Shown: positions 36,102-58,040 of the stretch, one piece after another
Layout: every line of letters starts with the position of its first letter
Position numbering within the stretch: the first letter of the stretch is position 1
Assembly: GCA_964370855.1 (NCBI GenBank)
Contig: CAYJMF010000001.1
Span: 133,167 to 197,166 of the forward strand
Source: an uncultured Planctomycetota bacterium
GTDB lineage: Bacteria > Planctomycetota > JAJSAM01 > JAKLKS01
DNA length: 64,000 nucleotides
Direction: 5' to 3'
The notes under the pieces: model-generated
Database searches by the model: none
What the model was told of the DNA's origin: nothing
What the model saw: only the letters and a program-made list of their open reading frames with translations
Position numbers and translations under genes: made by a program

Positions 36102-36163
36102 GCACAGAGAGTTACAGGAAGGAAGGGTCCGCGTTGCACGGGATCCCCGGATTCCCGGCGCGC

Positions 36164-39100
36164 CTACTCGAACTTCAGCTCCACGCCCGCCGCCGGGGCC
36201 TCGATGACGCCCCCGTCCACCGGCTTCGCCTGGCGGCGGGTGTCCACGACCTTCACCCGATGGGGCCCCGGCGCGAGGCCGGAGATCCGGAAACTCCCGT
36301 CCTCGCGGACGCGGGCGGAGACACCGGTCGACTCGGGGCCGCCGACCGGGGTCGCGATCACCGCGAGCGGCCCCTCCCCCGTCCCGGCGACGCGTCCCTC
36401 GATGGCCGCCCCGAAGGCGAGCCGGAACTCCAGGGGCTTCCCGTCGGCGGCGGCCGTCGCGGCCGCGGCCGGCGCCCACTCCGTCCCCCCGGTCCGGACC
36501 GAGACGCGGAAGCGGAACTCTCCGAGCCTCTCCATCGAGAAGGACCCCTCCCCGTCCGTGGAGGCCTCCCCCCTCGTCCCGTCCTCCGGGCCCCGCGCGT
36601 CCATCGCCTCGGCCCGCACCCCGAGCCCGCGGAGGGGGGCGCCGCCCGCGTCGTAGACCCGGCCGGCGAGGGCGAGCCCCCGCCCGAGGAGGAGGGTCGC
36701 CTCCCCCGCCCCCGGGCGCGCGCCCCGGAGGAACCCGCCAACCCCGGACCGGCCGCCGTGGAGGAAGAGGTCGTAGGCCAGGCCGGGATCGAGGCCGGGG
36801 ATCACGAAGCTCCCGTCCCGCTCCGCCTTCACCCGGCGCTCGGTCCCGGGCTCCGGCTTCCCCTCACCGGCGGGAACCGCGCCGACGGAGAGAGCGAGAT
36901 CCTCCAGCCGCTCCGTCACGTCCACGATGCGACCCTTGAGATCCACGCCAGCGACAAGGCGAATCTCGACGTCCTCCCGCCCCGCCTTGACGTCGCCGAG
37001 GACCGCCGGCAGAAGCGCCCCGCTCCTCTCCCCGCCGCGCCGCCAGTCCGGCGGCCAGGCGAAGACGCGGGTGGGGCCGGCGGGGAGGGCGCGGAACCGG
37101 AAGGAGCCGTCCGCCGCCGTCATGGTCCCCTCCCGCTGCTTCTCAGGCAAGGTCCCGACCCCGACCCGGGCCCCGGCCACGGGCCCGCCTTCGGCGTCGA
37201 GGACGCGGCCGGCGAGGGGGAAGCCCGGCTCCATCTCGAGGGTGACGGGCGCCCCCCCCGCCTCGGCCTTGGAGGACGGCCGGTGGAGCCAGGACCCGGG
37301 CGGCAGGACCTGGAGATCGTGGACTCCCGGGCGGAGGCCGGCGATCCGGAAGCGGCCCCGCGCATCGGAGGTGGATGTTCCGTGGGAGGGCATCGGGGAG
37401 GGAACGCCTCGGGGTGCCGCCACGGGGGGCCCGGAGGCCGTGACCATCGCGCCGGCGATGGGCTCCTCCGTGTCCGCCCGCACCACCCTCCCCTCGAGGG
37501 TGCGTGCGCGGAGGAGCGGAATGCGCACCTCCTCTCCCTCGACGGTGGGGTACTCGGGCACGTACCCGGCGGCGGCGACGTTGATCCGCTGCGGCCCCGC
37601 CTCGAGCCCGCCGAGGACGAACCGCCCCTCTAGGTCCGTCGTCTGCGCGGCCGTCCTCGCGACGACCCGGGCGCCCGGCACGGGGCGTCCCTCCTCGTCG
37701 ATGACGACGCCGCGGAGCGTCGCCTCCGCGCGGAGGCGGATCTCCACCGGCCCCCGCTCCTCCCCGCCGACGAGGTCGGGGAGTTCGAAGGTTCCCTCCG
37801 CGTGGCCCGCGTGCCGGACGAGGAGGACCTGCTGCGGGTAGCCGCGGAGGCCGGTGATGCGGAACGTCCCGTCGGCGGCGCACACCGCCGAGGGAATTCC
37901 GCTCGCCCCGGGGGGACCGAACTCCGAGTGGGACGCCGCGGTCCCGGCGGCGCTGCGGACCTCCGCCCCCGCCACGGGGCCGCCGGCCGCGTCGAGGACG
38001 ACGCCGTGCACCGAGGCTCCCCGGGGGACGACCCGGCGCAGCCCCTCCACGGAGCCACCGTCGGGGATGTCGAACGCGGGGAGAAGGGGCGTCGAACCCG
38101 CTCCCCCCTCGAGGGCGAGGGAGTATCCCCGGCCGGGGGGAACACCGTGGATGGCGAAACTGCCGTCCGGCGCCGACCGCGCGAAGCCCCGCGCGGCTCC
38201 CCCCTCCGCCGCGAGGTTCAGGATGAGCCCGGCCTCCGGGCGCCCCTCCGCGTCCACGAGGATCCCCGAGACCGTGCCGCCGCGGCGGAGCACGAGGTCG
38301 ATGGAGCAGGCGCCCTCCTCCGGCACCACCACGGAGCACTCGGGGGGGAAGCCCTCCGCCCGGGGCATCATGAAGCCCATGCCGCCGGGATACGCGGGCT
38401 GCCACCAGCCCGCCGCGGAGACCTTCACCATGGCCGGCCCGATCCGCGCCCCGCCGAGGACGAAGGTCCCGTCGGGGAGCACGGTGGCTCCCCTGCCGAC
38501 CGAGAAGCCACCGGGGCCCGTGGCCTGGGCGAGCTGGACATGGGCGAAGGGCACGGGGGAGCCGTCCTCCCCGCGGACCGTGCCGCGGATCGTCCGCGCG
38601 CGCTGGAGCCGGAGATCGAGGGGCTCCCCCGGCAGGAGGGAATCGGGCCGCCCCCCGGCGACGGTCCAGCGCCCGTCGAGGTGATCCCTCGCGGCGGCGA
38701 ACAGGAGCACGCCCGTCCCGCCGGGCGACGGGAGGGCGAACGTCCCCTCCCCGTCGGTCTCCGTGTCCACTCTCCCGGAGGGGCCGTCGAAGGGAGGGTA
38801 CCCGTGGGCGGTGACGACGGCCCCGGCGATTCCCGCACCCGTCTCCGCGTCCCGCACCCGGCCCCGCAGGGTATCCACGGGAACGCAGACCAGGCGGATC
38901 GGATCCGCGGAGGGGACCGCGACCCGGTCCTTCCCCGCCTTCACGCCGGAGGGGAGCAGGGCGGAGACCGCGACGGTGCCCGGCGCGAGGCCCTCGAGGC
39001 GGCAGGCGCCGTCGGCCCCGGTGATCGCCTCGACGACGACCTCGCTCCACGCCGCCCGCACCCGGGCGCCCGGCACCGGCAGGCCGGCCCCGTCGGTCAC

Positions 39101-39862
39101 CTCCACGTCGAGCGTCGTGCCCGGACCGAGGACCAGGTCCACGGGTTCCGGATCCCGATCCGGGGCCACGAGGATCTCCCGTACCTTCGCCGCCCTCCCC
39201 GCGGCCACGGCCTCCAGCCGGTAGATCCCCGGCTCCAGGGAGGGGAACGCGCCGCGCCCCCCTTCGTCCGCCTCCGTCCGGGCGGCGACGGCCCAGGGGG
39301 CGGCGTCGTCCCGGCGGACCGGGACCGCGGAACTCCACGACGGCGCCTGGCGGAGGAGGAGGCGGGCGCCGGCCGCGGGGCCGCCTTCCCCGAGGAGGAC
39401 CCGGGCCGCGAGCGCGCGGCCCTCGCCGAGGGGGATCACGCCGAGGTCGAGGGTTCCCGTCCGGGGGACGATCAGTCCCGGCCGGAGCGCCGCGGCGAGG
39501 CCGGGGGAAGTGAGCGCCGCGTCCACCCGGGAACCACGGGGAAGTCCGCTGATGCGAAACCTCCCGTCGGCGCCCGCCACCGCCCTGAGGACGGTGCCGT
39601 CGCCGAGGGTGACGGCGACCGCGACGGGGAGAGGTTCCACGGTCCCGCGGCGGACCGCCCATCCCTCGAGGTCGGTCGTCGGGGGGGCGGGCGCCGGAGG
39701 AGCGGGTGCGGGCGGGGCGCCCTCGGCGCGGGCGGCCGGGAATGCCGTTGACGTCCGCTCCTCCGGCGGAAACGTCCCGCCGTCTTCACGGAGCAGCAGG
39801 GCCCCCGCCCCGAGGACGGCGAGCACCGCGAGGCCGACCGCTACCTTCGGGACCCGGGCCAT
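36164..39862 (-). CDS. Membrane-anchored CarboxypepD_reg-like repeat protein (paralog family), first gene of the sigma-fusion operon
   Basis: ATG 39862. TM MARVPKVAVGLAVLAVLGAGALLL, Pro/Ala linker, then more than 10 repeats. The stop at 36164 is only 62 nt upstream of the sigma-fusion start at 36101 on the same strand. Confidence 0.85.
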   Translation of the reverse strand: MARVPKVAVGLAVLAVLGAGALLLREDGGTFPPEERTSTAFPAARAEGAPPAPAPPAPAPPTTDLEGWAVRRGTVEPLPVAVAVTLGDGTVLRAVAGADGRFRISGLPRGSRVDAALTSPGLAAALRPGLIVPRTGTLDLGVIPLGEGRALAARVLLGEGGPAAGARLLLRQAPSWSSAVPVRRDDAAPWAVAARTEADEGGRGAFPSLEPGIYRLEAVAAGRAAKVREILVAPDRDPEPVDLVLGPGTTLDVEVTDGAGLPVPGARVRAAWSEVVVEAITGADGACRLEGLAPGTVAVSALLPSGVKAGKDRVAVPSADPIRLVCVPVDTLRGRVRDAETGAGIAGAVVTAHGYPPFDGPSGRVDTETDGEGTFALPSPGGTGVLLFAAARDHLDGRWTVAGGRPDSLLPGEPLDLRLQRARTIRGTVRGEDGSPVPFAHVQLAQATGPGGFSVGRGATVLPDGTFVLGGARIGPAMVKVSAAGWWQPAYPGGMGFMMPRAEGFPPECSVVVPEEGACSIDLVLRRGGTVSGILVDAEGRPEAGLILNLAAEGGAARGFARSAPDGSFAIHGVPPGRGYSLALEGGAGSTPLLPAFDIPDGGSVEGLRRVVPRGASVHGVVLDAAGGPVAGAEVRSAAGTAASHSEFGPPGASGIPSAVCAADGTFRITGLRGYPQQVLLVRHAGHAEGTFELPDLVGGEERGPVEIRLRAEATLRGVVIDEEGRPVPGARVVARTAAQTTDLEGRFVLGGLEAGPQRINVAAAGYVPEYPTVEGEEVRIPLLRARTLEGRVVRADTEEPIAGAMVTASGPPVAAPRGVPSPMPSHGTSTSDARGRFRIAGLRPGVHDLQVLPPGSWLHRPSSKAEAGGAPVTLEMEPGFPLAGRVLDAEGGPVAGARVGVGTLPEKQREGTMTAADGSFRFRALPAGPTRVFAWPPDWRRGGERSGALLPAVLGDVKAGREDVEIRLVAGVDLKGRIVDVTERLEDLALSVGAVPAGEGKPEPGTERRVKAERDGSFVIPGLDPGLAYDLFLHGGRSGVGGFLRGARPGAGEATLLLGRGLALAGRVYDAGGAPLRGLGVRAEAMDARGPEDGTRGEASTDGEGSFSMERLGEFRFRVSVRTGGTEWAPAAAATAAADGKPLEFRLAFGAAIEGRVAGTGEGPLAVIATPVGGPESTGVSARVREDGSFRISGLAPGPHRVKVVDTRRQAKPVDGGVIEAPAAGVELKFE

Positions 39863-40094: not shown

Positions 40095-40796
40095 ATGGAC
40101 ACCTACAGCGTGTACTGCGACGAGAGCGGCCACATGCCGACCGGAGACCAGCCGGTCATGGTCCTTGGCGCACTGTGGTGCCCTTCGACCGAGATCCGCC
40201 GCTTGTCAGGGGCGATGCGAGGGATCAAGAGGGCGCATGGACTCGCGGCCTCCATGGAGGCGAAGTGGACCAAGGTCTCACCGGCCGGGTTTGATCTCTA
40301 CCGGGACATGGTGCGCCTATTCCTCGATGAACCTCACCTGCAGTTCAGGTGCATCGTCATTCGGGAGAAGGAGAAGTTGCGGCACGCGGCATACGGCCAG
40401 GACCATGACACGTGGCTCTACAAGATGTACTACAGCATGCTCAAGGTGGTCATCAAGCCGGGGGCGCAGTGGCGCATCTACCTCGACATCAAGGACACTC
40501 GAAGCGCGAGCAAGATGCGGGGACTTCACGATGTCCTGTGCAACACCATCCGCGACTTCGACAAGTCGATCATCGCGCGCATCCAGACCATCCGCTCGCA
40601 CGAGAGCGAACTCCTTCAACTGTCCGACATTCTCATCGGGGCGGTCCAATCCGCCAATCGGAGTGCCCCGAAGGAAGGGGCGAAGGGCAGGCTGATCGAG
40701 TTCATTCGCCATCGCACAGGCCTGAGCCTGACCTCTTCGACGTGGCTCACCGAGCCGAAGTTCAATGTGTTCGCCTGGACGCCGAGAGAGGAATAG
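40095..40796 (+). CDS. DUF3800 family protein
   Basis: N-terminal 'YSVYCDESGH' and the overall pattern (..KW.K...., ..YLD.KDTRS.., ..ESELLQLSDILIGAV) are typical of DUF3800. The gene is visibly lower in GC and uses A/T-ending codons compared with its flanks. Confidence 0.85.
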   Translation: MDTYSVYCDESGHMPTGDQPVMVLGALWCPSTEIRRLSGAMRGIKRAHGLAASMEAKWTKVSPAGFDLYRDMVRLFLDEPHLQFRCIVIREKEKLRHAAYGQDHDTWLYKMYYSMLKVVIKPGAQWRIYLDIKDTRSASKMRGLHDVLCNTIRDFDKSIIARIQTIRSHESELLQLSDILIGAVQSANRSAPKEGAKGRLIEFIRHRTGLSLTSSTWLTEPKFNVFAWTPREE

Positions 40797-40811
40797 GGGG
40801 CCGCGTCACCG

Positions 40812-41321
40812 ATGCCTCCAAGCTGGCTCCCGGGGCTACTCGACTACTCGGGAGATCTCCCGACCTATATTGAGACGGTGTTCGCCCGATACAAGGCGGA
40901 CTTGAGTGCCGGCGGGCTGGCGGTGTTCGGGGTCCCGGTGATAGTGCCCGCGAGCCCGCTCGTCGACGGCAAGCCCAGGACCTTCTGGCATCTCGTTTCC
41001 GAGGACAGCAGTGACTTCCCGGGAGCCGAACGCGGAGTCAGCATCTCGCGGTGCGAGAGGATCGGGTGGGTCCGCGCGATCATCGACCATCACACGGATC
41101 CCACGCTGAAGCGCTGGACTGCAACGCGCAACGGGAAGAGGAATCTACTGCTCGCCCTTCCGGACTTTGACTATGTGGCAATCTTCGCACTGCTGGATGG
41201 GGCGGCACCGCCACAACTGCCAGCCAGGGGGAGAGCGCGTCTGTTGACTGCATTCCCTGCGCGGTATCCCCACAGGAGAAGGAAGTTCCAGCGAGATTAC
41301 GACGGGGGGAACAAGGTGTAG
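40812..41321 (+). CDS. Hypothetical protein, partner of DUF3800 (no domain recognised)
   Basis: It starts 15 nt after the DUF3800 stop on the same strand and shares the atypical composition. 169 aa with non-shadow-like composition (..FWHLVSE..RCERIGWVRAIIDHH..DYVAIFALL..LLTAFPARYPHRRRKFQRDY). Confidence 0.7.
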   Translation: MPPSWLPGLLDYSGDLPTYIETVFARYKADLSAGGLAVFGVPVIVPASPLVDGKPRTFWHLVSEDSSDFPGAERGVSISRCERIGWVRAIIDHHTDPTLKRWTATRNGKRNLLLALPDFDYVAIFALLDGAAPPQLPARGRARLLTAFPARYPHRRRKFQRDYDGGNKV

Positions 41322-41502: not shown

Positions 41503-43401
41503 CTACTTCGCATCCCCCTCCGCGGCCCACCAGGCGATCCAGTCCTCGACCCAGGCGGGGCGCTCCTCCTCGCGGCGGAGCGGGCCGGAGTTCCAGACGT
41601 GGGTGTGGCGATCCCAGCCGAAGCGCTTGCCCGTGAGGGATCGCAGGATCCGGTGGGCGTTCCAGCGCACCCAGGGCTTCCCGGAATCGAGGAGCCCGAG
41701 GAGGACCGGGATCGACGCCCGCGTCGGCGGGGCGGCGATCTCCGCCCCCTCCGCCTTGAACCCCTCGAGGACCCAGGCCATGCGGCCGCGGCCCTTCGCC
41801 GTCTCCCACCACGTCGCAGCCGCGCCGGCGTCGGCGAACTCCCGGTTCGCGAGGCAGGTGAGGGCCCGGAGCGCGGTGCGCTTCGGGACCTCCTCCTCGG
41901 AGTCCTTCTTCTTCTCGAGGTAGGCGAGGAGGCGCGCCGCGTCCTCCTCCTCCCCGCACCGGGCGAGGCCGTCCATGGATTCGCTCCGGATCCCCTCGAA
42001 GGAGGGATCCTCGAGCCCCTCGCGGAATACGGGGAGCGAGGAGGGATGGGCCTCCTCCTCGAGGCGGCGGAGCGCCGATTCCCGGATCTTCCGGCCGGCG
42101 CGGCGGTCGAGGGCGATGCGCCCGAGGGCCTCGACGAGGTCCGGCGGAAGGTCGAGGGAGTCCATGCGGTGGAGGGCCATGATCGCCGCCTCCCGCACGT
42201 CCCCGTCCTCCTGGCCCAGCGCCGCGACGAGATCGGGGAAGAAGCCCGGGTCGGCGGAATCCCCGATGAGGCGGGCCGCCTCCTCCGCGGTCTCCGGGTC
42301 CGTGAGCCGCTTCCGGAGGGATGCCCGCGCGCGGCCCTCGGCTGCGGCGACGACCTCCAGCGCCTCCCCTCCAACCCCGAGCTTCGCGAGCCCGTGGCGG
42401 ACGAGGGCGACGCCCCAGGCCGGGCACTCCTCGTCCTTCACCGCCGCGAGGAGAAGCGGCGTCGCCTCCGCGGGCCGGCCGAGGCGCCGCAGCGTGTCGG
42501 CGACGGTGATCCGCGCCCAGGCCCGCGCCCCCGCGTCCCCTTCCGGGGTCCGGGCGCCCGGTTCGAGCAGGGAGAGGGCCGCCTCCTGGAAGGCGCGCTC
42601 CCGGCCCATGGAAGCGGCGAGCGCCGCAGCCGCGTCGCGGATCCCCTGCGGGGAGGCAGGTTCGGTACATGCACCGAGCATCCTCCCGGCGGCGTCGTTC
42701 TCCCCGGTGCGGCGGTGGAGGAACGCGGCGGCGAGGTCGAGGATCGGATCCCCCTTCCCCGCGGCCCGCGCCGCCGCCGCCTCCCGCTCCGCCGCGGCGG
42801 CCGCCGCCTCGCTCCGCGCGAGGGAGGAGAGGAGGATCTCGCCCGGCGGGGGCGGCAGGCGCCGCGCCTCCCCGTGGACCCGGTCCATGGCCGCCTCGAA
42901 GGCCGGGGCGAGCTCCTTCTTCCCGGTGACGGGGCGCAGCGCCTCCCACGCCTCCTGCCGCACGGCCCAGGCGCCGTTGAGGAGGAGCACGCCCCGGTCC
43001 GACGGCGCGGCCCCCTCCCACTCGGCGATGCGGGCCGCGAGGTCGAACTTCACCCAGGTCTCCTCCGTGGAGCCGGGCGCCTCGAGCCCCGCGAGGATCC
43101 GCTTCTTCGTCTCCTCCTTGACCCCCTTCTCGAAGTTCCCCGCCCGGTTCGAGTACCGGCAGTGCTCGCAGGTCCAGACGGAGTAGGGGAGCACCGCCCC
43201 GCCGGCGACCCGCGGCGCGAGGTCCCCGTCGCAGCCGTCCCCGGTCCAGGAGGCGATGTACTGGACGGTGATCGTCTTCCCGCAGACGGGGCAGCCGACG
43301 TCCTTCGAGCGGACGGTGGTCGCCCGGGCGGCGGGAGGGGCGACGGCGGCGGCGGCGAGTCCGAGGGCGAGGAGGAGGGAGAGGGCGGCGGTCGGGCGCA
43401 T
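41503..43401 (-). CDS. Secreted zinc-ribbon (CxxC..CxxC) + HEAT-repeat protein
   Basis: ATG 43401 (residue 81 of ORF 41503..43641). Signal peptide MRPTAALSLLLALGLAAAAVAPPAARA. 'CPVCGKTI..(37 aa)..CEHCRYS' zinc-ribbon-like pair. The C-terminal half has HEAT/PBS-lyase-like repeats (..DPGFFPDLVAALGQEDGDVREAAIMAL.., ..VLLGLLDSGKPWVRWNAHRIL). Confidence 0.8.
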   Translation of the reverse strand: MRPTAALSLLLALGLAAAAVAPPAARATTVRSKDVGCPVCGKTITVQYIASWTGDGCDGDLAPRVAGGAVLPYSVWTCEHCRYSNRAGNFEKGVKEETKKRILAGLEAPGSTEETWVKFDLAARIAEWEGAAPSDRGVLLLNGAWAVRQEAWEALRPVTGKKELAPAFEAAMDRVHGEARRLPPPPGEILLSSLARSEAAAAAAEREAAAARAAGKGDPILDLAAAFLHRRTGENDAAGRMLGACTEPASPQGIRDAAAALAASMGRERAFQEAALSLLEPGARTPEGDAGARAWARITVADTLRRLGRPAEATPLLLAAVKDEECPAWGVALVRHGLAKLGVGGEALEVVAAAEGRARASLRKRLTDPETAEEAARLIGDSADPGFFPDLVAALGQEDGDVREAAIMALHRMDSLDLPPDLVEALGRIALDRRAGRKIRESALRRLEEEAHPSSLPVFREGLEDPSFEGIRSESMDGLARCGEEEDAARLLAYLEKKKDSEEEVPKRTALRALTCLANREFADAGAAATWWETAKGRGRMAWVLEGFKAEGAEIAAPPTRASIPVLLGLLDSGKPWVRWNAHRILRSLTGKRFGWDRHTHVWNSGPLRREEERPAWVEDWIAWWAAEGDAK

Positions 43402-43623
43402 GGGGCACCTCCGGGTCGGGGCGAGTGTACCTCCGCGGGAGTGGAACCGTCCATCCTGGGAATCTCGAGGGTCGGCCATCCAATGGCTCGACACCCTGAG
43501 TGGTCTGGGGGATTCCTGCGGCCTCCATGCGCGCCCCTGAAGAACCTCCGTAACAAACTGGTAACAATGATGTTGTGAATTCGCGACAAGAGCGGAGCCC
43601 CTGGAGTAGCGCTGCGAGGGTGG

Positions 43624-43670
43624 TTCCACTTCACATTCCACTTCACATTGCGGCCCAGCCGTGCTAGCAT
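43624..43670 (+). promoter_or_regulatory. Candidate sigma-70 promoter with tandem 12-nt direct repeats (operator?) for the TIGR04255 cassette
   Basis: TTCCACTTCACA x2 (43624-35, 43636-47). TTCACA (43642-47) - 17 nt - TAGCAT (43665-70). GGAGG at 43733-37 precedes GTG 43746. The region is locally AT-richer. Confidence 0.4.
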
Positions 43671-43745
43671 CCCCCGGGTCCGGATCGTCGGTCCTCCCCG
43701 GACGCGTCGGGGGACGCGACGTCCACCCGTCCGGAGGTAAGAGCC

Positions 43746-44543
43746 GTGCACGAGATCAGGAACCCTCTTGTGGATCCCCCACCGAAGGAGATCCCGCTTC
43801 CCCGGTCTCCCCTGGCCCGGGTGGTCGCCCAGGTGCGGTTCCCCGTCGTCGCCTCCGTGTCCCGGCAGGACTTCATCGGTTCGTTCCAGGAGGCCATCCG
43901 CGCCGAGTACCCCGTCCTGCGCCCGGAGAAGGGGCGCACGATCATCGCGGGGCCGGGAGGGCTCACGTCCGAGGACAAGACGGTCTGGCGCTTCATGGAA
44001 GTCGATGGGGCCTGGCGAGCGACCCTGGCGCCCGACTTCGTGGCCATCGAGACGACCAGGTACACGAGCAGGGATGACCTCCTGGGCCGGCTGGGGCGGA
44101 TCCTCGAAGCGACGGAGAAGCACGTCGGGCCCAGGGTCGTGGATCGCCTCGGACTGCGCACCATCGATCGCCTGGAAGAGGCGGCGCTGTGCGAGATCCC
44201 GACCCTTGTTCGACCGGAGATGATCGGGGTGCTCGGGACCCCGTGGGGAAGCGGCGCCGACCACTCCATCTGCGAGAGCGCTTTCGATCTCCCCGACGGG
44301 TCCCGGCTGCAGGCCAAGTGGGGCGTCCTCCCCAGGGGCAAGACCGTGGATCCGAGTTCCATCGAGCCTCTCGATTCGCGGACCTGGCTCCTCGACCTGG
44401 ACCTGTTCACCGAGAAGCCCGGTCCGTTCGACAGCGGAGCCATCGTGGAGCGGGCGAGGTGCTTCGCCGGGCGCATCTACACCGTGTTCCGCTGGGCGGC
44501 CACGCCCGCTTTCATCAGGCGATACGGGGGGGAACCGGAGTGA
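43746..44543 (+). CDS. TIGR04255-family protein (function unknown)
   Basis: GTG 43746 with a GGAGG RBS. The N-terminal pattern 'P.SPLARVVAQVRFP......DFIGSFQEAIRAEYPVL' and the ~265-aa length fit the sporadically distributed TIGR04255 family. Confidence 0.75.
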   Translation: MHEIRNPLVDPPPKEIPLPRSPLARVVAQVRFPVVASVSRQDFIGSFQEAIRAEYPVLRPEKGRTIIAGPGGLTSEDKTVWRFMEVDGAWRATLAPDFVAIETTRYTSRDDLLGRLGRILEATEKHVGPRVVDRLGLRTIDRLEEAALCEIPTLVRPEMIGVLGTPWGSGADHSICESAFDLPDGSRLQAKWGVLPRGKTVDPSSIEPLDSRTWLLDLDLFTEKPGPFDSGAIVERARCFAGRIYTVFRWAATPAFIRRYGGEPE

Positions 44544-45238
44544 GCGGGTTCGACGCCGGCGTGACGGGCGGTGGCGGCACCTCCTCGGGCGCTACCGGGG
44601 ACGAGTACGTGGCCACGTCGGCCCTGCTCGCCTTCGGCCTGGTGATGTTGCCGTGGGGAAGTTCCTCCGCCGCGAACGCCACGACCTCGACCTCCGCCGA
44701 CTGCGTGCGGGAACCTCCGGCCGAATTCCGCGGCACCAGCAGCGGCGACGGCGCCATGGCGGTCGCCATCCCCAGCCAGGGCATGCTGCATGACCTCCGC
44801 GCGCGGTCCGGCCTCACGTGGGAGCAGATCTCCCGCCTCCTGAAGGTCAGCCGCAGGTCCGTACACCTCTGGGCGAACGGGAGCACCGTGACCCCGGCCA
44901 ACGAGGAGCACATGGGGCGCGTCCTCTCCGTCCTGCGGGCCGCGGACCGGGGGAGCCCTCGCGAAACCCGGGCGGCACTGCTCACTCCGTCTCCGGAGGG
45001 GGTCGTTCCCTTCGACCTCCTGGCGGACATGAGGTACGAGGCGGCACTGGAACTCCTGAAGAGCATGCGCGGCAGGACAAGGCCGCGCCGACCCCCTCTC
45101 TCCGAGGAGGCCCTGGCATCGCGGCTCCCCTCGCCTCCCGATCGCCTGGTCGGAGCACTCCACGAACCCGAGCAGGAAGCTCCGAGGAAGTCGAGAGTCG
45201 CAAGAGCCATCAGGACCAGGGACCGTGGCGGAAGGTGA
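44540..45238 (+). CDS. Xre-type HTH protein, antitoxin-like (C-terminal part reminiscent of DUF2384, tentative)
   Basis: GTG 44540 overlaps the upstream TGA (GTGA); an internal Met at 'MAVAIPSQG' is an alternative start. HTH 'LTWEQISRLLKVSRRSVHLWANG'. Downstream 'RAALLTPSPEGVVPFDLLADMRYEAALELL' resembles the toxin-binding domain of Xre/ParS/MbcA-type antitoxins. Confidence 0.7.
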   Translation: MSGFDAGVTGGGGTSSGATGDEYVATSALLAFGLVMLPWGSSSAANATTSTSADCVREPPAEFRGTSSGDGAMAVAIPSQGMLHDLRARSGLTWEQISRLLKVSRRSVHLWANGSTVTPANEEHMGRVLSVLRAADRGSPRETRAALLTPSPEGVVPFDLLADMRYEAALELLKSMRGRTRPRRPPLSEEALASRLPSPPDRLVGALHEPEQEAPRKSRVARAIRTRDRGGR

Positions 45239-46088
45239 CGTCCCCGCAGGGGAACAGCCCCCTCCTCGATGCCTCCTTCCGGAGTGGCGACAGGGGGACT
45301 GCGTAATCGGCCCCCAGCGGTTCTACTACCGCGCGGCCGAGGTCGGAACCGCCGCCGCCGGAGAGCCGCCGCAGGATGGGAACGGCGACGACGTCTGGAA
45401 GGAGGAGGTCGAGGGACTGGTCGTCATCACGCAGAACTGCGACATCGAGAGGGACGTGAGCGTCTATCCACGGGTGGAGGTCGCGGCACTCGTGAAGCGA
45501 GACGGGAAGTTCGTGAAGGAGGTGGCGCGCCAGCGCCGGCCGAGGTTCGCCCTGGTGCCACAGGTCGCGACCATGGGTCTCGTCGCGGACCTCTCCAGGG
45601 TGATGGTCGTGGAGAAGGAGGTAGTCGCTGCGTGGCCCCGGCATCCGGGATGCGTCACGGATGACGATCGACGTGCGTTCGCTCGCGCACTGGCCAGGAA
45701 GTACGAGCGCTTCGCCTTCCCCACCGACTTCACCACTCTCGTCGGCGAACTGACGGACATGTTGAAGGAGACGCACGATCGGCCTTCGCCTGAAGGGCGT
45801 GCCCTGCGCGCACTCCAGTGGATCCGTGTCCGGGCGGACCCCGGCTGGGACGAGGAGCAGGTCTCCCTCGAGTTCCTCTTCGTGCGGAGCGAGGTCGACG
45901 CGACCTTCGAAGGACGGACCTGGGAGGAACTCGCGAAGAAGTGGATGGCGCTCGTGCCGACGACCGGACGGTTCAAGAACATCACATGGGAAGTCGCCGA
46001 CATGGACCGGTTCACGATGAGGGACTTCGTCGCGACCGACCCTCTGGACCTTGACCGACTCTCCGGGGCGGCGAGACCGGCGGACTGA
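45225..46088 (+). CDS. Hypothetical protein, third gene of the cassette (no domain recognised)
   Basis: GTG 45225 lies 14 nt before the upstream stop (45236-38). 287 aa with ordinary globular composition ('LPEWRQGDCV..', 'GLVVITQNCDIERD', 'FAFPTDFTTLV..'). The C-terminal 'DPLDLDRLSGA' is repeated in the relic at 52.8 kb. Confidence 0.7.
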   Translation: MAEGDVPAGEQPPPRCLLPEWRQGDCVIGPQRFYYRAAEVGTAAAGEPPQDGNGDDVWKEEVEGLVVITQNCDIERDVSVYPRVEVAALVKRDGKFVKEVARQRRPRFALVPQVATMGLVADLSRVMVVEKEVVAAWPRHPGCVTDDDRRAFARALARKYERFAFPTDFTTLVGELTDMLKETHDRPSPEGRALRALQWIRVRADPGWDEEQVSLEFLFVRSEVDATFEGRTWEELAKKWMALVPTTGRFKNITWEVADMDRFTMRDFVATDPLDLDRLSGAARPAD

Positions 46089-46295
46089 GCGCTCCCACGT
46101 GCCCGGGCGGGCGAGGGCAAGGACGGACGCGACTCCCGCTGACAGTCCTTCGCCACCATCCCCACCGCCCCCCCGGAGACCTGGATGCCGAGTTCACCGT
46201 CGAAGGCCCGACGGGTACCATGGCCGGGCCATGAAGAAGGGAGTGCCGGTCGGGAACGCGATCCTCGTCGCCGCGGTGCAGGCAAAGGCGGAGTG

Positions 46296-48281
46296 ATGAC
46301 GACCCCGCTCGGAGGTGCGGGAGGGCGGGGGCATCCGGGCGGAGCCACCGGGCGAAGGACCCGGCGGGACCTGGCCATGGCCATCGCGGTGGCCGTGGTG
46401 GCGGCCGTCGCGTGGGTGCTCCTCCGCACTCCGGAGATGGAGGAGCACGTGGTGCCCCCGGCGCCGCCGCCGGCCCCGCTCCCCGCGCCGGCGCCGGGGA
46501 CGCCGGCCGTCGCGCCCCCTCCACCCGCCACGCCAACGAAGGCCGGCCCGCCCGCGCCGCCGCCCGCCGCCGCGGCGGATGCCCCCCCCGCGGACCCGCG
46601 ACCCCTCCTCCGCGGCCGCGCGGTGATCCGCGCCCCCGACGGGAGCGAGAAGCCGGCGCCCGGCGCGCGGTTCGTCCTCCACGAACTGCCCATGGAGATC
46701 GAAGTGGCAACCGGGACGTACTGGAACACCCATCGATTCATCGTCTGCGACGGAGACGGGCGTTTCGAGGCGCCGGTCCCTCCCGACGACGAGGTGGTCC
46801 TCCTGCCGGACCCCGGGGACGCGGCCTTCGCGTTCCCCGCGGGGCTCGGGAAGCTGCGGTTCGCCACCGACGCCGCCTCCCTCGCCGACGAGGTCCGCGT
46901 GCAACTCTCCCCGCGGGGCCGCGCCTCGGGCATCGTCCTCGACCCCGCGGGAGAGCCCGTCGCCGGCGCGTCGATCTCCTTCGCCGCGAAAATCACGCAG
47001 GAGGGCCCCCTCTACACCGCCCCGGAACTGGGCTCCTCCCGGACCCTGTCCGGCCCCGACGGGCGTTTCACCCTGGAGGGGCTCCCGGTCGGGAGGACCC
47101 TGGCGGCGGTCGCGGCGAAGGCGCCCTTCCGGAAGAGCCTCTCCTCCCCGTTCCAGGTTCCCGAGGGCGGAACCGTCGAGGGCATCGAGATCCGCCTCCT
47201 CCCGGGCTGCGCCATCACCGGCCTCGTGACGGACCCGGCGGGCGCTCCCCTTCCCGGCGCGCAGGTGCGCGTGACGACGGGGAACACGACGCGATGGGCG
47301 GGACCCAACGTCCCCGCCGATCTCCCCGACGAGGCCGTCGCGGGGCCCGACGGGCGGTACCGGATCGAGGGGCTCGAGCAGCGGGCGTACAGCGTCTTCG
47401 CCACCCTGGAGGGTCACACTCCCGCCGACCTGGGCGGGATCCACGCCACCGCCGCGGGGACCGAGGCGGGCCCCCTCGTGCTCGTGCGGGGAGGGGTCCT
47501 CCGCGGGATCGTCGTGGACGCGGAGGGGCAACCGCTCACCGGCGCCTCCATCACCCTCCAGGGCGAGAACCGCAGCGGCGGCACGGCCACGACGGGCGCC
47601 GACGGGAGATTCGAGATCCGTCCCGTGGTCCCCGGCTCCCACACGCTCTACGCGGGAAAGGTCGGATTCGTCCAGCGCCCGCCGGAGAGCCTCGAACTGG
47701 CCGGAGGGGAGGAGATCCGGATCGTCCTCGAGCGGGGGTACGAGATCACGGGCACCGTGCTCGACTTCGACGGCAAGCCCGTCCCGCAGGCACGGGTCCA
47801 GGTCCACCCCTGGCCCACCAGGGGCGCGGAAGTCCTCGGAGTCGCCATGACCGACCCCCGCGGGAGGTTCTCCGTCGGAGGCCTCCCCGCCGGGAGCCAC
47901 GGGATCGCGGTGACCGCGGTGGGCCACGTCTTTCCCGACTTCCCCCCGGTCCCCGCGGGGACCACGACCGTGGAACTCCGCACCGCACGGTCGGTCTTCA
48001 TCGCCGGCCGGGTCCTGAAGCCGGAGGGGGAGCCCTTCCCCGACGCATGGGTGGAGGTCGCCGACGGCGGAGGGGTCGAGCCCCCGGACCACGTCGACCT
48101 CCGCCGGTTCCGGCGCGTGCTGACGGATGGGGAGGGCTGCTTCCGGGCCGAGGGGCTCCTCGGCGGCCCCTTCCACCTCCTCGTCCGGGCCCGGGACGAC
48201 CTGCAGGAGGAGTCCCTCCGCGACGTCCCCGGGGACAGCGACGGCCTCGTCCTGCGGATGCGGCGGCGGGAGGGGCGCTGA
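46296..48281 (+). CDS. Membrane-anchored CarboxypepD_reg-like repeat protein (short paralog)
   Basis: ATG 46296 has AAGGCGGAG upstream; an alternative ATG is at 46377. TM 'MAIAVAVVAAVAWVLL', Pro/Ala linker, then about 6 modules ('GIVLDPAGEPVAGASI', 'GLVTDPAGAPLPGAQV', 'GIVVDAEGQPLTGASI', 'GTVLDFDGKPVPQARV'). Confidence 0.8.
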   Translation: MTTPLGGAGGRGHPGGATGRRTRRDLAMAIAVAVVAAVAWVLLRTPEMEEHVVPPAPPPAPLPAPAPGTPAVAPPPPATPTKAGPPAPPPAAAADAPPADPRPLLRGRAVIRAPDGSEKPAPGARFVLHELPMEIEVATGTYWNTHRFIVCDGDGRFEAPVPPDDEVVLLPDPGDAAFAFPAGLGKLRFATDAASLADEVRVQLSPRGRASGIVLDPAGEPVAGASISFAAKITQEGPLYTAPELGSSRTLSGPDGRFTLEGLPVGRTLAAVAAKAPFRKSLSSPFQVPEGGTVEGIEIRLLPGCAITGLVTDPAGAPLPGAQVRVTTGNTTRWAGPNVPADLPDEAVAGPDGRYRIEGLEQRAYSVFATLEGHTPADLGGIHATAAGTEAGPLVLVRGGVLRGIVVDAEGQPLTGASITLQGENRSGGTATTGADGRFEIRPVVPGSHTLYAGKVGFVQRPPESLELAGGEEIRIVLERGYEITGTVLDFDGKPVPQARVQVHPWPTRGAEVLGVAMTDPRGRFSVGGLPAGSHGIAVTAVGHVFPDFPPVPAGTTTVELRTARSVFIAGRVLKPEGEPFPDAWVEVADGGGVEPPDHVDLRRFRRVLTDGEGCFRAEGLLGGPFHLLVRARDDLQEESLRDVPGDSDGLVLRMRRREGR

Positions 48282-48334: not shown

Positions 48335-51300
48335 CTACTCCCCTCCCGCCGGGATCCTCAGGTCCGCCGACGGCGCCTCGAACTCCCCGAGCGGGAAGGT
48401 CTCCCCGAAGCGGGTCTCGGCGGTCAGGACGATGCGGCCCGGGACGAGGCCCACCAGGGTGAAGACCCCGTCGTCCCCCGCCGCGGTGAACTCCCGGAGG
48501 CCGGGCAGGCCCGGTTGTGCGGCGACGACGTAGAACACCTCCCGGGCCTTCCGGGCGCCGTCCACGAGGAGGACGCGGAGACGGGCCCCGGGCCGGGTCC
48601 GCACCTCCAGCCCCGCCGTTCCCGGGGCGACGGGCCCGGAGGCCACGGGCGCGAAATCCGGGACCTCCTCCGAGGCGTAGGTCCCCCCCGCGTAGACCCG
48701 GAACCGGTAGGGGCCGAGATCCTCGAACTGGAACTCCCCGCTCTCGTCGGTGCGTTCCCATCCGAAGGCCCCCGGCGCGTCCGCGGCCACCCCCTCCGCC
48801 AGGGCGCGCACGGGGACGCCCGCGCCGACGGGCAGGCCGTCGGGGTCGAGGACGCGGCCGGAGATCCGGCCCGCCCTCTCCAGTTCGATCACGACGTCCA
48901 CGCTCCCCGCGGGAACGGCGGCCACGCGGGCCTCGAGGAACCCGTCGCAGAAGCGCGTCACGAGGTCGTAGTCCGTCCCGGGAAGGAGGGGCCCGGCCTC
49001 GAACCGGCCGTCGTGGATGGAATCGGCGTCCCCCCCCATGTCGCGCAGCGAGGTCCCCGGCGGACCGTAGTGGACCCACCCGGACTCGACGGGGTTCCCC
49101 TCCCCGTCCACCACCGTGCCGGAGATGAAGACGCCCCGGTGCAACCGGAGCACCACCCCGGCGGTCCCCGCCGGGACTCCGTCCAGTGCCGCGGGCACGA
49201 GGTCCATGGGCCGCCGGGAGGACCAGGCCGAGAGGCGGTACTTCCCCTTCGGGAGTCCCTCGAAGGAGAAGGAGCCGTCCTTCCCCGCCTCCCCGTCACG
49301 GCAGAGGGGCGAGATCAGGTCGCCGAAGGGGTTCACCATGTCGACCCGCACGTGGACGGGCTCCGCGAGGGCCCCCCCCTCCCCGTCCAGCACCCGGCCG
49401 GAGATGGAGAGCCCCGGGGAGAGTTCCACACGGAGCCCGCGCGCACCCACGGCGAGGTCCTGGATCTCGACGGGGACGAGTCCACGGGTCCCGGGGTCGA
49501 GGCCGTCCTCCCTCCCCGCGAGGAGATCGCAGGTCCGCGTGCCGTCGAGACCGTCGAGGAGGAAGGTCCCGTCGGCGCGGCTCTCCCCCCGCACCTCGTG
49601 GACGGGGCCCAGGTAGCCGGTCTGCTGGCGGGCCGCCAGGGGGATCCCCGGCAGCGGCGCCCCGGAGCCGGCGGCGACGACGAGGCCCGCGAGGGTGCCC
49701 GTGCGGTGGAGGACGATCACCGACTCCCCGCCGCCGCTCTCGCCGAGGGCGGCGCCCGGGTACCGGCCATCGAGGTCGGCGAGGACGTCGTACTCGCCCT
49801 TCCAGAGCCCTCCCACGGTGAACCGCCCGTCGGGGCCGGAGACCGCGAGCACGGCCCCCTCCCCGACAATGCGGTCCATGTGAAGCCACTCCGGCATGTG
49901 TCTGGACACCCGGATGGCCGCCCCGGGCAGGGGGCGGCCCTCTTCATCGACGACCCGGCCGCGGAGTTCCGTCGCAGGGACGAGGAGCACCTCGATCCCC
50001 TCCACGACCTGTCCCGCGGCGACCTCGCATCGGGGAGGGTCCTCGGGGAGGAACCCGTCCGCCGTCACCCACAGGAGGTAGTTCCCCGGGCGCACTCCCT
50101 CCAGGCGGAAGGTGCCGTCCTCCTCCGCGGCGGCCACCCGGTCCCCCGGTTCCGCCGGCCGGGAGAGACCGGGGTAGAACCCCGCACCGAGGAGGACCTC
50201 GGCCGATGGGGGGAGCGGCCCCCCTTCCACGCGGATCCGGCCGGCCACCGTGGCGCCGGGGAGGGCGGTCACGACCACGTGCACGGGGCGGTCGCCCTCG
50301 GGCACGGGGAAGGGCTCCGAGATGCCCGATTCCCCGGCGCTCCCGAAGACCCTCACCCGGACCCCGCTCCCGGGGAGGACGCCCTCGATGCGGAACCTCC
50401 CGTCGGCATCGGAGGGGTCGCGCGAGGAGATCCAGCCGGAATCCCCCTCACGCTCCTGGAGCACGGCGTCGATTCCCGGCAGGGGTCGGCCCTTCCCGTC
50501 CATGACCGTCCCCTCGATCACGGCCCCCCTCCGGAGGACGAAATCCCGCTCCGCCTCCTCCCCCGCCGCGACCTCGACGTGCGCGCGGCCGCTGTCGAGG
50601 AACGACCTCCCGCGCACGTGGAGACCGCAGGGCCCCGGCCGGACCCCGGAGAGCAGGAACCGGCCGTCGGGTCCGGATTCCGTGCGCACGTTGAACTCCC
50701 ATCCCTCGTCGGATTCGGGGTACGCCACCACGTCCGCCCCCTCGACGGGAGTCCCGTCCGCTGATCGGACGGATCCCCGGATCCGCCCGCCCCGCGCGAG
50801 GGCGACCTCGACGACGGTCTCGCGGTCCGGCAGGAGTTCCGGGCAGGGCGCGTCCCGCTCCATCACGGCCGGGACGGCGCCCTCCTTCTTCGCCTCCCAT
50901 CGGCCGAGCCGCCCCGCGGGGAGGCCCCGGAAGACCACGATGCCTCCCGCATCCGTCGGGGCCAGGGCATCCGCGGACCACGGGGAGTCGCCCGGTCCAC
51001 CCACGCCGGCGTACACCCAGACCCCCGCGACGGGGCTCCCGTCGGCCCCGTCGCGGACGAGGAACCGGAGCGAGCAGCCCGCGGGGAGGACGAGGTCGAA
51101 CCGCTCCACGGAGGGGAGGGTCAGGGTCCGGGCCGACAGCGCGACCCGGCCCTCGAGGACGACGGAGAGCGTGGCGGTGCCGGGGGGGAGGGCGGCCAGG
51201 CGGTAGCGGCCCTCCCCGTCCGTCGCCGTCCCGTGGATGCCCTCCGCCCATCCCTTCGCCACCACCCGCGCGCCGACGACCGGTTCCCCCGAGGAGGTCA

Positions 51301-51856
51301 GGACCCGCCCCTCGAGGGAGCAGGCCGGACCGAGGCGGAGTTCCACGGACCGTCGGCACCCCTCGGGCCGCAGGTAGACCTGCTCCTCCGCCGTGCACCG
51401 GCCTTCGACCGCGGCCCGCACGCGGAGGAAGCCGGCCGGGAGCCCCCCGAGGACCCCCCTTCCCCCGGCGTCCGTCGCGAGGCGGCCCACGGAGGGCCCG
51501 GGGTCGGGGGCGAGGGAGGAGATCCGGATCACCGCCGGGGGAAGCGAATCCTCGGGATCCCGGAGGAAGAGGACTTCGGCCCCCGGGAGGGGCCGGCCCA
51601 TGCCGTCGACGACCCGGACGGAGACGATGCGATCCTCCTTCACGGGCTCCCCGGCCCCGGGCGGCGGGACCGCGGCCGGGGGACGCGGCGGTGCGGGAAG
51701 CGGGGCCGCCGGGGAAGGACCCGCCGGCGCCTTCCCCCCTCCGCCGGGGGCGGGACCGACCCGGGGCGCCCCGGGCAGGAGGAGGAGCCCCAGGGCGAGG
51801 GCCGCCACCGCCGCCATCGCGGCCACGACCTTCACCGCCCGCCGCCGGGATCCCAT
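48335..51856 (-). CDS. Membrane-anchored CarboxypepD_reg-like repeat protein (paralog family)
   Basis: ATG 51856 with GGAGG 5 nt upstream. TM 'VKVVAAMAAVAALALGLLLL', Pro-rich linker, repeats. It ends '..LGEFEAPSADLRIPAGGE'. It is convergent with 46296..48281. Confidence 0.85.
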   Translation of the reverse strand: MGSRRRAVKVVAAMAAVAALALGLLLLPGAPRVGPAPGGGGKAPAGPSPAAPLPAPPRPPAAVPPPGAGEPVKEDRIVSVRVVDGMGRPLPGAEVLFLRDPEDSLPPAVIRISSLAPDPGPSVGRLATDAGGRGVLGGLPAGFLRVRAAVEGRCTAEEQVYLRPEGCRRSVELRLGPACSLEGRVLTSSGEPVVGARVVAKGWAEGIHGTATDGEGRYRLAALPPGTATLSVVLEGRVALSARTLTLPSVERFDLVLPAGCSLRFLVRDGADGSPVAGVWVYAGVGGPGDSPWSADALAPTDAGGIVVFRGLPAGRLGRWEAKKEGAVPAVMERDAPCPELLPDRETVVEVALARGGRIRGSVRSADGTPVEGADVVAYPESDEGWEFNVRTESGPDGRFLLSGVRPGPCGLHVRGRSFLDSGRAHVEVAAGEEAERDFVLRRGAVIEGTVMDGKGRPLPGIDAVLQEREGDSGWISSRDPSDADGRFRIEGVLPGSGVRVRVFGSAGESGISEPFPVPEGDRPVHVVVTALPGATVAGRIRVEGGPLPPSAEVLLGAGFYPGLSRPAEPGDRVAAAEEDGTFRLEGVRPGNYLLWVTADGFLPEDPPRCEVAAGQVVEGIEVLLVPATELRGRVVDEEGRPLPGAAIRVSRHMPEWLHMDRIVGEGAVLAVSGPDGRFTVGGLWKGEYDVLADLDGRYPGAALGESGGGESVIVLHRTGTLAGLVVAAGSGAPLPGIPLAARQQTGYLGPVHEVRGESRADGTFLLDGLDGTRTCDLLAGREDGLDPGTRGLVPVEIQDLAVGARGLRVELSPGLSISGRVLDGEGGALAEPVHVRVDMVNPFGDLISPLCRDGEAGKDGSFSFEGLPKGKYRLSAWSSRRPMDLVPAALDGVPAGTAGVVLRLHRGVFISGTVVDGEGNPVESGWVHYGPPGTSLRDMGGDADSIHDGRFEAGPLLPGTDYDLVTRFCDGFLEARVAAVPAGSVDVVIELERAGRISGRVLDPDGLPVGAGVPVRALAEGVAADAPGAFGWERTDESGEFQFEDLGPYRFRVYAGGTYASEEVPDFAPVASGPVAPGTAGLEVRTRPGARLRVLLVDGARKAREVFYVVAAQPGLPGLREFTAAGDDGVFTLVGLVPGRIVLTAETRFGETFPLGEFEAPSADLRIPAGGE

Positions 51857-57146: not shown

Positions 57147-57935
57147 CTACCCGGGCACTTCGATGAACCCCTTGAGGTAGGGCTCCACCCGCCCGGCCAT
57201 GGAGACGCGCTCCCCGCGCAGTTCGCAGGCGAGCGCCCCGCCCCGCGCCGAGACCTGGCGGGCCCGGAGCACGTTCTTCCCCAGGCGCGCCGCCCAGAAG
57301 GGGACGAGGACGCAGTGGGTCGAGCCCGTCACCGGGTCCTCGGGGATGCCGGACCCGGGCACGAAGTAGCGGGAGACGAAGTCGCAGGTGCGGCCGGGGG
57401 CCGTCGCGACGAGGCCGTGGAAGGGGAGGGCCCGCACCCGCTCCATGTCGGGGCGCAGCGCGAGCACCGCCTCCTCGTCCCCGAGGAGGGCCACGACCTG
57501 GGAGGCGGCGTGCACCTCGAGGGGGACGGCGCCGAGGGCCGCGGCGAGGCCCGGCGGCGCCGGGATCGGGCGCGGGGGCTGGGCGGGGAAGTCGAGGGCG
57601 TAGAGGTCGCCCCGGCGCTCCACGCCGAGATCCCCCGCCATCCGGGTGCGGAACCGGACCGCGGTCCGCCCCGGCTCGAGGTCGTTCATCACGACGGCGC
57701 CCGAGGCGAGGGTCGCGTGGCCGCAGAGATCCACCTCCACCGCCGGGGTGAACCAGCGGAGGTCGTAGACGCCGTCGCCGCCGACGAGGAACGCGGTTTC
57801 GGAGAGGTTGTTCTCCGCGGCGATGGACTGGAGGAAGGCGTCGGGGAGCCACTCCCCGAGGGGGCAGACGGCGGCCGGGTTCCCCGTGAAGGGGCCCTCG
57901 GCGAAGGCGTCGAGCTGGTGGATGGGAATCCGCAC
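57147..57935 (-). CDS. PhzF-family isomerase-like protein
   Basis: 'IHQLDAFAEGPFTGNPAAVC', 'NLSETAFL', 'LRWFTPAVEVDLCGHATLA' and 'GIPEDPVTGSTHC' are canonical PhzF-family motifs. 262 aa. Confidence 0.85.
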   Translation of the reverse strand: MRIPIHQLDAFAEGPFTGNPAAVCPLGEWLPDAFLQSIAAENNLSETAFLVGGDGVYDLRWFTPAVEVDLCGHATLASGAVVMNDLEPGRTAVRFRTRMAGDLGVERRGDLYALDFPAQPPRPIPAPPGLAAALGAVPLEVHAASQVVALLGDEEAVLALRPDMERVRALPFHGLVATAPGRTCDFVSRYFVPGSGIPEDPVTGSTHCVLVPFWAARLGKNVLRARQVSARGGALACELRGERVSMAGRVEPYLKGFIEVPG

Positions 57936-58040
57936 GCTGGTGCCCTCCGCGGGACGGAGCGCATCCTACCCGGCCCCGGCCTCCCCGTGCCCCGGGGGAG
58001 CGCCGCGGGGTTACCATCCATCCATTCCCCCGGGGGCGCC

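Follow-up and report, generated by a model that had tools for sequence, protein, structure and literature searches.

The 64,000-nucleotide stretch analysed here (the window) comes from an uncultured Planctomycetota bacterium (GenBank assembly GCA_964370855.1, contig CAYJMF010000001.1, positions 133,167 to 197,166 of the forward strand) and carries a cassette of three overlapping genes, g1, g2 and g3, with a putative operator and promoter in front of them. The cassette is small (2.5 kilobases, kb) and self-contained. It very probably functions as one operon, autoregulated through ACTTCACA repeats by its own helix-turn-helix (HTH) protein, the product of g2. With about even confidence, we read it as a mobile, autorepressed, three-part toxin-antitoxin (TA)-like or abortive-defence module, in which g2 would act as repressor and neutralizer and g3 as effector, with g1 in an accessory, sensing or stabilizing role. 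The genes, with protein lengths in amino acids (aa), are:

43746-44543 (+): g1, GTG start, TGA stop, 265 aa, TIGR04255 family
44540-45238 (+): g2, GTG start, TGA stop, 232 aa, HTH protein
45225-46088 (+): g3, GTG start, TGA stop, 287 aa, without known family

Scanning one genome per species gave 344 loci with a g3 relative, the best 80 of which span Cyanobacteria, Myxococcota, Acidobacteriota, Gammaproteobacteria, Planctomycetota, Deinococcota and Gemmatimonadota. By tblastn, g1 is present in 75 of the 80, g2 in 78 and g3 in all 80, with order and strand constant; most of the loci short of g1 or g2 are cut by a contig end. All-against-all clustering of the open reading frames (ORFs) of the 80 loci detected no fourth conserved gene, the flanks varying from genome to genome. 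The triad also lies on plasmids of Rhizobium etli, Kocuria and Paenarthrobacter (found with hidden Markov models), and g1 and g3 co-locate on plasmids of Chroococcidiopsis, Sphingomonas and Sinorhizobium (tblastn). The triad-carrying plasmids are mostly conjugative, with g3 identities to the window copy down to 27-34%, and an Acinetobacter record holds a remote version of the triad. With a GC content of 0.687 the triad lies below the window (0.743) and its immediate flanks (0.75-0.79), which fits horizontal acquisition. The genes of the triad are small, overlapping and (by prediction) co-transcribed, and patchy and mobile in their distribution, as is expected of a type II TA system.

The junctions between the genes are as the original prediction gave them. 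A Shine-Dalgarno sequence, GGAGG, precedes g1 at 43733-43737; the g1 stop and g2 start share 4 nucleotides (nt) as GTGA at 44540-44543; and g3 opens at GTG 45225, ahead of the g2 stop at 45236-45238, giving an overlap of 14 nt. This GTG is the sole in-frame g3 start 5' of the conserved WRQGD motif. Overlapping starts at both junctions recur in nearly all complete loci. In about 70 of these the g2 start codon, mostly ATG, forms with the g1 stop an overlap of precisely 4 nt (ATGA or GTGA), and low-GC cyanobacteria, in which the g2 frame opens only 6 nt earlier, keep the same overlap. Relative to the g2 stop, which it overlaps or adjoins, the g3 start (GTG or ATG) ranges across loci from -17 to +3 and stands at -14 in the window. 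The downstream ATG 44757 was considered as the true start of g2 and rejected, since the 4-nt overlap start is conserved, low-GC genomes included. None of the three findings that the original prediction had set against itself -- absence of linkage between the three families, a match of g1 or g3 to a metabolic family, or independent genes starting at downstream methionines -- was made: the families occur together in the proportions given above and on plasmids, neither g1 nor g3 matches a metabolic family, and the overlapping starts are conserved across phyla. The cassette idea is supported on all three counts.

Upstream of g1 lies a gap of 344 nt (43402-43745, assuming that the minus-strand HEAT gene before it starts at ATG 43401), which is AT-richer than its surroundings, as had been noted (GC 0.644, measured over 43403-43745, versus 0.743 for the window). 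It contains the following elements:

43624-43647 (+): tandem 12-nt direct repeat, TTCCACTTCACA x2, read directly from the sequence
43628-43647 (+): operator core ACTTCACA-N4-ACTTCACA, half-sites 43628-43635 and 43640-43647, defined by conservation
43642-43670 (+): sigma-70-type promoter, with TTCACA at 43642-43647, a 17-nt spacer, TG at 43662-43663 and TAGCAT at 43665-43670
43677-43745 (+): predicted 5' leader of about 70 nt, its start placed from the position of the -10

The -35 hexamer TTCACA falls inside the second operator half-site, and TTCACA-17-TAGCAT is the only sigma-70-like site in 43300-46400, where shuffled sequences lead one to expect 0.1. The repeat and the promoter whose -35 it holds are present as first described, as are all other sequence features of the original prediction, and the 20-nt operator pattern has one match in the 64-kb window where 0.01 would be expected. 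In the cross-phylum scan, which searched the 260 nt before g1 on its coding strand and allowed at most 3 mismatches, ACTTCACA-N4-ACTTCACA was found 5' of g1 in 73 of 75 loci, versus 3 other matches in 834 kb, both strands. TTCAC is invariant in both half-sites of the 71 aligned sites. Three close-relative lineages (g1 85% and 75% identical) retain ACTTCACATTCCACTTCACA unchanged while the DNA around it diverges, and the -10, TGCTAsCAT, is kept in the close relatives L081-L086. In 33 of 71 loci a TANNNT element lies 16-18 nt past the operator (control offset: 1 of 71), and 16 of the 33 have a -10 that ends 6-7 nt ahead of the g1 start, so that about half of the related loci in which a -10 can be recognised have no leader. 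With so many leaderless copies, the 70-nt leader of the window appears dispensable. A regulatory RNA within it was considered and rejected, the fold being not unusual (z -0.38) and no Rfam family matched.

The recognition helix of g2, VSRRSLHFWASG, is as conserved as the operator, and the two change together. The R. etli copy, with helix CTRQSLYNWRDG, has a changed site, ACTTTAC x2, and locus L021, with helix VAPRSVHFWASG (VAPRS), has CTTCATA x2. On the actinobacterial plasmids of Kocuria and Paenarthrobacter (L088 and L089) the operator is inverted, as tgtgaagTAGAGtgtgaagc, about 30-50 nt upstream of g1 (L088 3936-3955, and likewise in L089). We read the spacer of the inverted site, TAGAGT or TACAGT, as a TAnnnT -10 element, which in L088 lies a few bases before a probably leaderless g1 start; on this reading the inverted operator overlaps the -10, not the -35. 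Retention of the site in inverted form argues that it serves a binding protein and is more than a -35. Since it is retained in both orientations, always over a core promoter element, it looks like the site of an autorepressor. From these patterns we infer that g2 binds the operator, and the suggestion that the repeat serves the cassette's own HTH protein is strongly supported by its conservation, by the co-variation with the HTH and by its orientation-independent retention.

The g2 protein can be divided as follows:

aa 1-78: N-region, rich in Ser, Thr and Ala, fast-evolving and poorly conserved, with three short T-S-x-G-like motifs
about aa 83-121: Xre-type HTH
about aa 122-175: MbcA-like helical C-domain
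aa 176-232: conserved basic tail

The family is very basic (median isoelectric point, pI, 10.4). The window protein itself gives sub-threshold matches to HTH_31 and HTH_3; among 48 relatives HTH_3 is matched by 42, and PF20432 (antitoxin Xre-like HTH) weakly by 31. A profile built from the 48 sequences has as its best match in the Protein Data Bank (PDB) the antitoxin MbcA (6fkg_C, E 0.0037, 20 bits), with profile positions 90-174 aligned to MbcA 20-108, an alignment that covers both the HTH and the toxin-binding domain. The window protein has no PF20432 match, its relatives reach at best about 19 bits versus a threshold of 25.8, and against the NCBIfam Xre_ParS antitoxin model NF049845 it scores 13 bits, where the cutoff is 90. 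The original comparison of g2 with Xre/ParS/MbcA-type antitoxins is supported by these matches, though at scores short of the family thresholds; the MbcA/ParS likeness is weak but specific. A role as autorepressor and neutralizer is proposed for it.

The product of g3 is the probable effector or toxin. Its features are:

about aa 18-140: N-domain, a MazF/CcdB-like barrel in the model, with W21RQGD and G64..Q70-x-C72-D73..R76
about aa 146-270: alpha/beta C-domain, also from the model
46044-46064 (+): invariant acidic tail, L274DLDRLS280

In a set of 5.8 billion proteins g3 has 229 homologues, all of them nameless and lacking any Pfam domain, and its profile gathers 1,846 cluster representatives at E<=1e-3 (among 1.84 billion). 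The best 150 of these representatives are all 200-335 aa long, mostly 265-300, with no fusions. The invariant set comprises W21-R-Q-G-D, G64, Q70-x-C72-D73, R76, R125, K131, R162-x-A-F-P, H184, E190-G and the terminal L-D-L-D-x-L-S; such invariant residues of the Cys, Asp, Arg, His and Glu types suggest catalysis. The protein is acidic, the N-domain carrying a charge of about -6 and the tail about -4. In a Foldseek search of the PDB with the AlphaFold2 model (pLDDT 84.6), ranks 1-6 and several lower ones are MazF/PemK/MoxT toxins, with E 2.5e-3, probability 1.0, a target-normalised TM of 0.55 and a root-mean-square deviation of 6-7 A. The g3 profile found no match among PDB sequences, and the B. 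subtilis MazF sequence alone (checked against 4me7) none in g3. When an 81-sequence MazF profile was used, LVADLDRvMTVEK aligned to VVLLEQIRTIDK as expected, though without significance. Homology of g3 to MazF is not claimed: as the sequence and profile comparisons are insignificant and the N-domain is acidic, g3 is here called MazF/CcdB-fold-like and not MazF.

The assignment of g1 to TIGR04255 is confirmed: it scores 107.3 bits against the NCBIfam model (E 1.1e-30, cutoff 30), residues 18-259 aligning to profile positions 2-250 of 252. The family is acidic (median pI 5.1) and many Arg, Asp and Tyr residues are invariant. From the order of secondary-structure elements in the AlphaFold2 model (pLDDT 93.7, pTM 0.89) we read it as two beta-alpha-beta4-alpha repeats, that is, a pseudo-dimer like the TATA-box binding protein (TBP). 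Foldseek matches in the PDB are weak (AdoMetDC, E 8e-5, TM about 0.25; guanidino kinases, TM 0.33-0.36), and a profile search against PDB sequences found no match. Compared with a viral library, the model matches an unnamed viral protein (E 5e-9, TM 0.62) and, at E 8e-5, the TATA-box binding protein of a giant virus. An accessory, sensor or stabilizer role is proposed for g1.

Some weak hints bear on how the proteins may touch one another. Between the window and its close relative L082, identity is 85% in g1, 79-80% in the HTH and middle domain of g2, 65% in the g2 tail and 44-53% in g3, and the L082 g3 is no closer to the window g3 than is any other family member; g3 has thus either been exchanged or evolves much faster than its partners. 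Partial rank correlations of pairwise identity over 74 loci, with all other segments controlled for, are highest between proteins for the g2 tail with the g3 N-domain (0.36), the N-terminal half of g1 with the g3 C-domain (0.38) and the C-terminal half of g1 with the g2 middle domain (0.35). The g2 tail has a charge of about +5, versus about -6 and -4 for the g3 N-domain and tail. All contacts between the proteins are accordingly put here as putative.

The proposed mechanism would run as follows. The single promoter TTCACA-17-TAGCAT would drive g1-g2-g3, and the overlapping stops and starts would couple translation and so fix the proportions of the three proteins. The g2 protein would bind the two direct ACTTCACA half-sites over the -35 and shut the operon off; it would also keep the effector inactive, its basic C-terminal tail binding the acidic g3 N-domain. 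The g1 protein might sense a trigger or stabilize g2, possibly through the Ser/Thr-rich N-region or the middle domain of g2. Were g2 lost or titrated -- by phage infection, loss of the element or proteolysis -- the operon would be derepressed, and free g3, acting through its invariant Q-x-C-D..R..H..E set, would stop growth. The toxicity, the trigger and any anti-phage role are presumed throughout.

A number of observations weigh against this TA-like reading. The 59 g3 homologues scanned have no Pfam domain, the original prediction having likewise recognised no domain in g3, and g3 has no PADLOC or PHROGs match; g1 likewise has no match in Pfam, PADLOC or PHROGs. The likeness of g3 to MazF comes from Foldseek alone, hhalign giving a probability below 1% against the 81-sequence MazF profile, and its acidic N-domain is unlike that of RNA-cleaving MazF. 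MbcA-type antitoxins are normally paired with RES-domain toxins, and no RES or ART domain was found in g1 or g3 with Pfam and NCBIfam, nor such a fold among the Foldseek matches. Classical pairs such as MazEF show the opposite charge pattern to this cassette, in which g2 is basic and g1 and g3 are acidic. DNA adjacency and phylogeny confound the co-variation signals, which are weak, and the MbcA-like middle domain of g2 correlates with the C-terminal half of g1 (0.35), not with g3. Just one viral contig (IMG/VR) carries a g1 relative; and the flanks of the related loci are only moderately enriched in defence and mobile-element functions, most of the genes there being ordinary.

A few loci depart from the standard arrangement. 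In L064 29-2078 (a Synechococcales metagenome-assembled genome, MAG) a DDE transposase gene stands in place of g1 and g2, leaving an intact, promoter-less g3 alone. In L058 4742-5963 (Anabaena lutea) an unrelated 167-aa ORF, overlapping g2, replaces g1; the N-region of g2 there differs and is longer, and the HTH, the tail and g3 are retained. L035 and L069 carry frameshifts, which may be assembly errors because both are MAGs. As natural knock-outs, L064, L035 and L069 are uninformative as to which gene is toxic.

The main rival keeps the same operon and the same g2 autorepressor and exchanges the roles of the other two proteins, with g1 as an enzymatic effector or toxin neutralized by the MbcA-like domain of g2, and g3 as sensor or accessory. 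We consider it unlikely. It would account for the co-variation of the g2 middle segment, which is strongest with the C-terminal half of g1, and for the differing g2 N-region in L058, where g1 has been replaced; the many invariant Arg, Asp and Tyr residues of g1 and its highest-TM PDB matches, the ATP-guanidino kinases, weak as these are, point the same way. The occurrence of g1 in three-gene cassettes with other partners (in Burkholderia prophages, a Rhizobium plasmid and the Acinetobacter record) is also cited in its favour, but constancy amid changing partners would sooner be expected of a sensor or regulator than of an effector. Further, in MbcA/ParS-type systems the antitoxin comes before the toxin, whereas g1 is placed 5' of the antitoxin-like gene, and no catalytic family is recognisable in g1.

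Less likely still, and in our judgement rather improbable, is a switch with a purely regulatory or sensory function, of the ImmR/ImmA or anti-repressor type, in which g1 and g3 would adjust the activity of g2 and g2 in turn would govern targets elsewhere, for example incoming DNA or distant genes. Such a switch would suit the fact that g2, a predicted DNA binder, is the only clearly assignable protein of the three and that no toxin family is matched significantly; being acidic, g1 and g3 could also counteract the very basic g2 as anti-repressors. Against this, the operator occurs once in the window and elsewhere only as the 3 further matches in 834 kb of related loci, and the flanking genes are unrelated between genomes, so that no conserved regulated target is visible; it is this want of a conserved external target or second operator that makes the switch less likely, and the catalytic look of the invariant g3 residues also speaks against it. 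That the three are chance ORFs, or ordinary adjacent host genes and not a unit, has next to no probability: a 74% GC genome is full of long spurious ORFs, but all three proteins have homologues by the hundreds, g1 and g3 give confident structure models, and the idea is refuted by the linkage, order, overlaps and upstream site kept across phyla, low-GC cyanobacteria included.

As for systems already described, the original prediction could match the cassette to none, and scanning PADLOC-DB v2.0.0 (2023) with g1, g2, g3 and the components of related cassettes gave no match. The cassette is undescribed in PADLOC v2 (2023), Pfam, NCBIfam (beyond TIGR04255), PHROGs and the searchable literature, and literature searches, which also covered three-part TA systems with Xre and multidomain MazF toxins, found no paper mentioning TIGR04255. 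We present it as a candidate three-part type II TA-like or defence system. One close likeness is to the Xre/MbcA/ParS group (MbcTA, ParST, Xre-RES): the HTH and helical domain of g2 align over nearly the whole of MbcA, and, as in that group, the antitoxin-like gene lies directly 5' of, and overlaps, the putative effector gene, with a predicted self-operator. It differs in that g2 adds a 78-aa Ser/Thr-rich N-region and a 57-aa basic tail, in that the upstream third gene (TIGR04255) is an obligatory part, and in that all matches lie under the family thresholds. To MazF/PemK/CcdB it may be likened by the modelled g3 N-domain, whose top six Foldseek matches are MazF-family structures, and by the toxin position that g3 takes in the operon; g3, however, is 287 aa long with an added C-terminal domain, has an acidic N-domain, and shows motifs of its own (WRQGD, Q-x-C-D, LDLDxLS), the catalytic Arg/Thr pair of MazF being unrecognisable. 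HigBA-SecB, HipBST and PaaR-PaaA-ParE are likewise three co-transcribed small genes with one HTH protein and a third component, mobile and patchy in occurrence, but in the cassette the third component is encoded first and belongs to TIGR04255. Scans with Pfam, NCBIfam and PADLOC found no SecB-like chaperone, HipT/HipA kinase or ParE in it, and the modelled g1 fold appears TBP-like, not SecB-like.

Other cassettes, led by more distant TIGR04255 proteins, were also found, in Burkholderia P2-like prophages and on a plasmid of Rhizobium sp. CB3060:

L091 3465-5495: TIGR04255-led cassette, Burkholderia phage vB_SBP38
L090 3959-6132: TIGR04255-led cassette, Rhizobium sp. CB3060 plasmid

Here too TIGR04255 is the first of three tightly packed genes, but the other two genes show no relation to g2 and g3, and the middle one lacks an HTH. 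The third proteins of the two cassettes, 236 and 218 aa long, are relatives of one another with a common motif, GLTC[SA]T[FY], possibly that of a Cys-dependent enzyme. The partner proteins of the Burkholderia, Rhizobium and Acinetobacter cassettes have no Pfam or PADLOC match. The Burkholderia cassette lies in the prophage cargo region between the integrase and a HigBA-type toxin/antidote pair, and that of the Rhizobium plasmid adjoins a multiubiquitin/ThiF/DUF6527 cluster.

The surroundings of the triad differ widely. Among the closest relatives the neighbours are GmrSD and an integrase fragment, or an integrase and Imm26; other loci lie in a genomic island with integrase, transposase, ParA and AlpA, or in a region rich in insertion sequences with DruA, and some have ordinary housekeeping genes on either side. 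A survey of 139 non-redundant flanking proteins from 40 loci found 3 AbiLi, 2 C5 methylases, 2 PD-T4-6-type kinases, 2 Uma2 and 2 M78/IrrE peptidases, as well as integrases and recombinases. With so moderate a defence and mobile-element content, strict residence in defence islands is not claimed. In 50,697 phage records g3 had no match.

In the window itself, a PADLOC candidate defence pair, PDC-M04, lies at 40095-41321 (+), 2.4 kb upstream of the triad, and consists of a 233-aa DUF3800 protein (PDC-M04A, E 6e-82) and a 169-aa protein (PDC-M04B, E 2e-29). With a GC of 0.62 versus 0.74 for the window, it forms a second, separate low-GC islet. Between the two islets, at 41503-43401 (-), sits a gene of host-like GC for a HEAT-repeat/DUF2225 protein, whose probable N-terminus, MRPTAALSLLLALGLAAAA, looks signal-peptide-like; its longest ORF reaches 240 nt further upstream, into the triad promoter region, an extension that is probably untranslated. 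The host region around the cassette is otherwise marked by paralogous giant proteins of 700-1,400 aa with CarboxypepD_reg repeats:

32202-39862 (-): CarboxypepD_reg giant proteins
46185-48281 (+): CarboxypepD_reg giant protein
48335-51856 (-): CarboxypepD_reg giant protein
57315-60425 (+): CarboxypepD_reg giant protein

The ORF at 32202-36479 has regions 2 and 4 of an extracytoplasmic function (ECF) sigma factor near its N-terminus, and could represent either two genes or one protein fused to a sigma factor.

A broader view, which we put forward tentatively and hold to be doubtful, is that TIGR04255 proteins, with their TBP-like two-repeat fold, may be the common sensor or adaptor in a superfamily of three-gene conflict systems that has so far gone unrecognised and whose partner pairs can be exchanged. 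The window would then represent its largest branch, an MbcA-like HTH protein with a MazF-fold, Cys-containing effector, forming a new anti-phage or anti-plasmid abortive system whose repressor and ACTTCACA x2 operator have been carried as a pair across at least 8 phyla. The cassette would give TIGR04255, a curated and uncharacterised family, its first functional context, and would do the same for the nameless g3 family, which comprises about 1,850 clusters (50% identity). The TA and defence repertoire would gain a three-part architecture in which no RES toxin accompanies the MbcA-like antitoxin. The HTH and its operator, near-invariant as a pair from cyanobacteria to actinobacteria, would make an unusually clean and directly testable case of a regulator transferred horizontally together with its site, and could serve as a portable repressor-promoter part.

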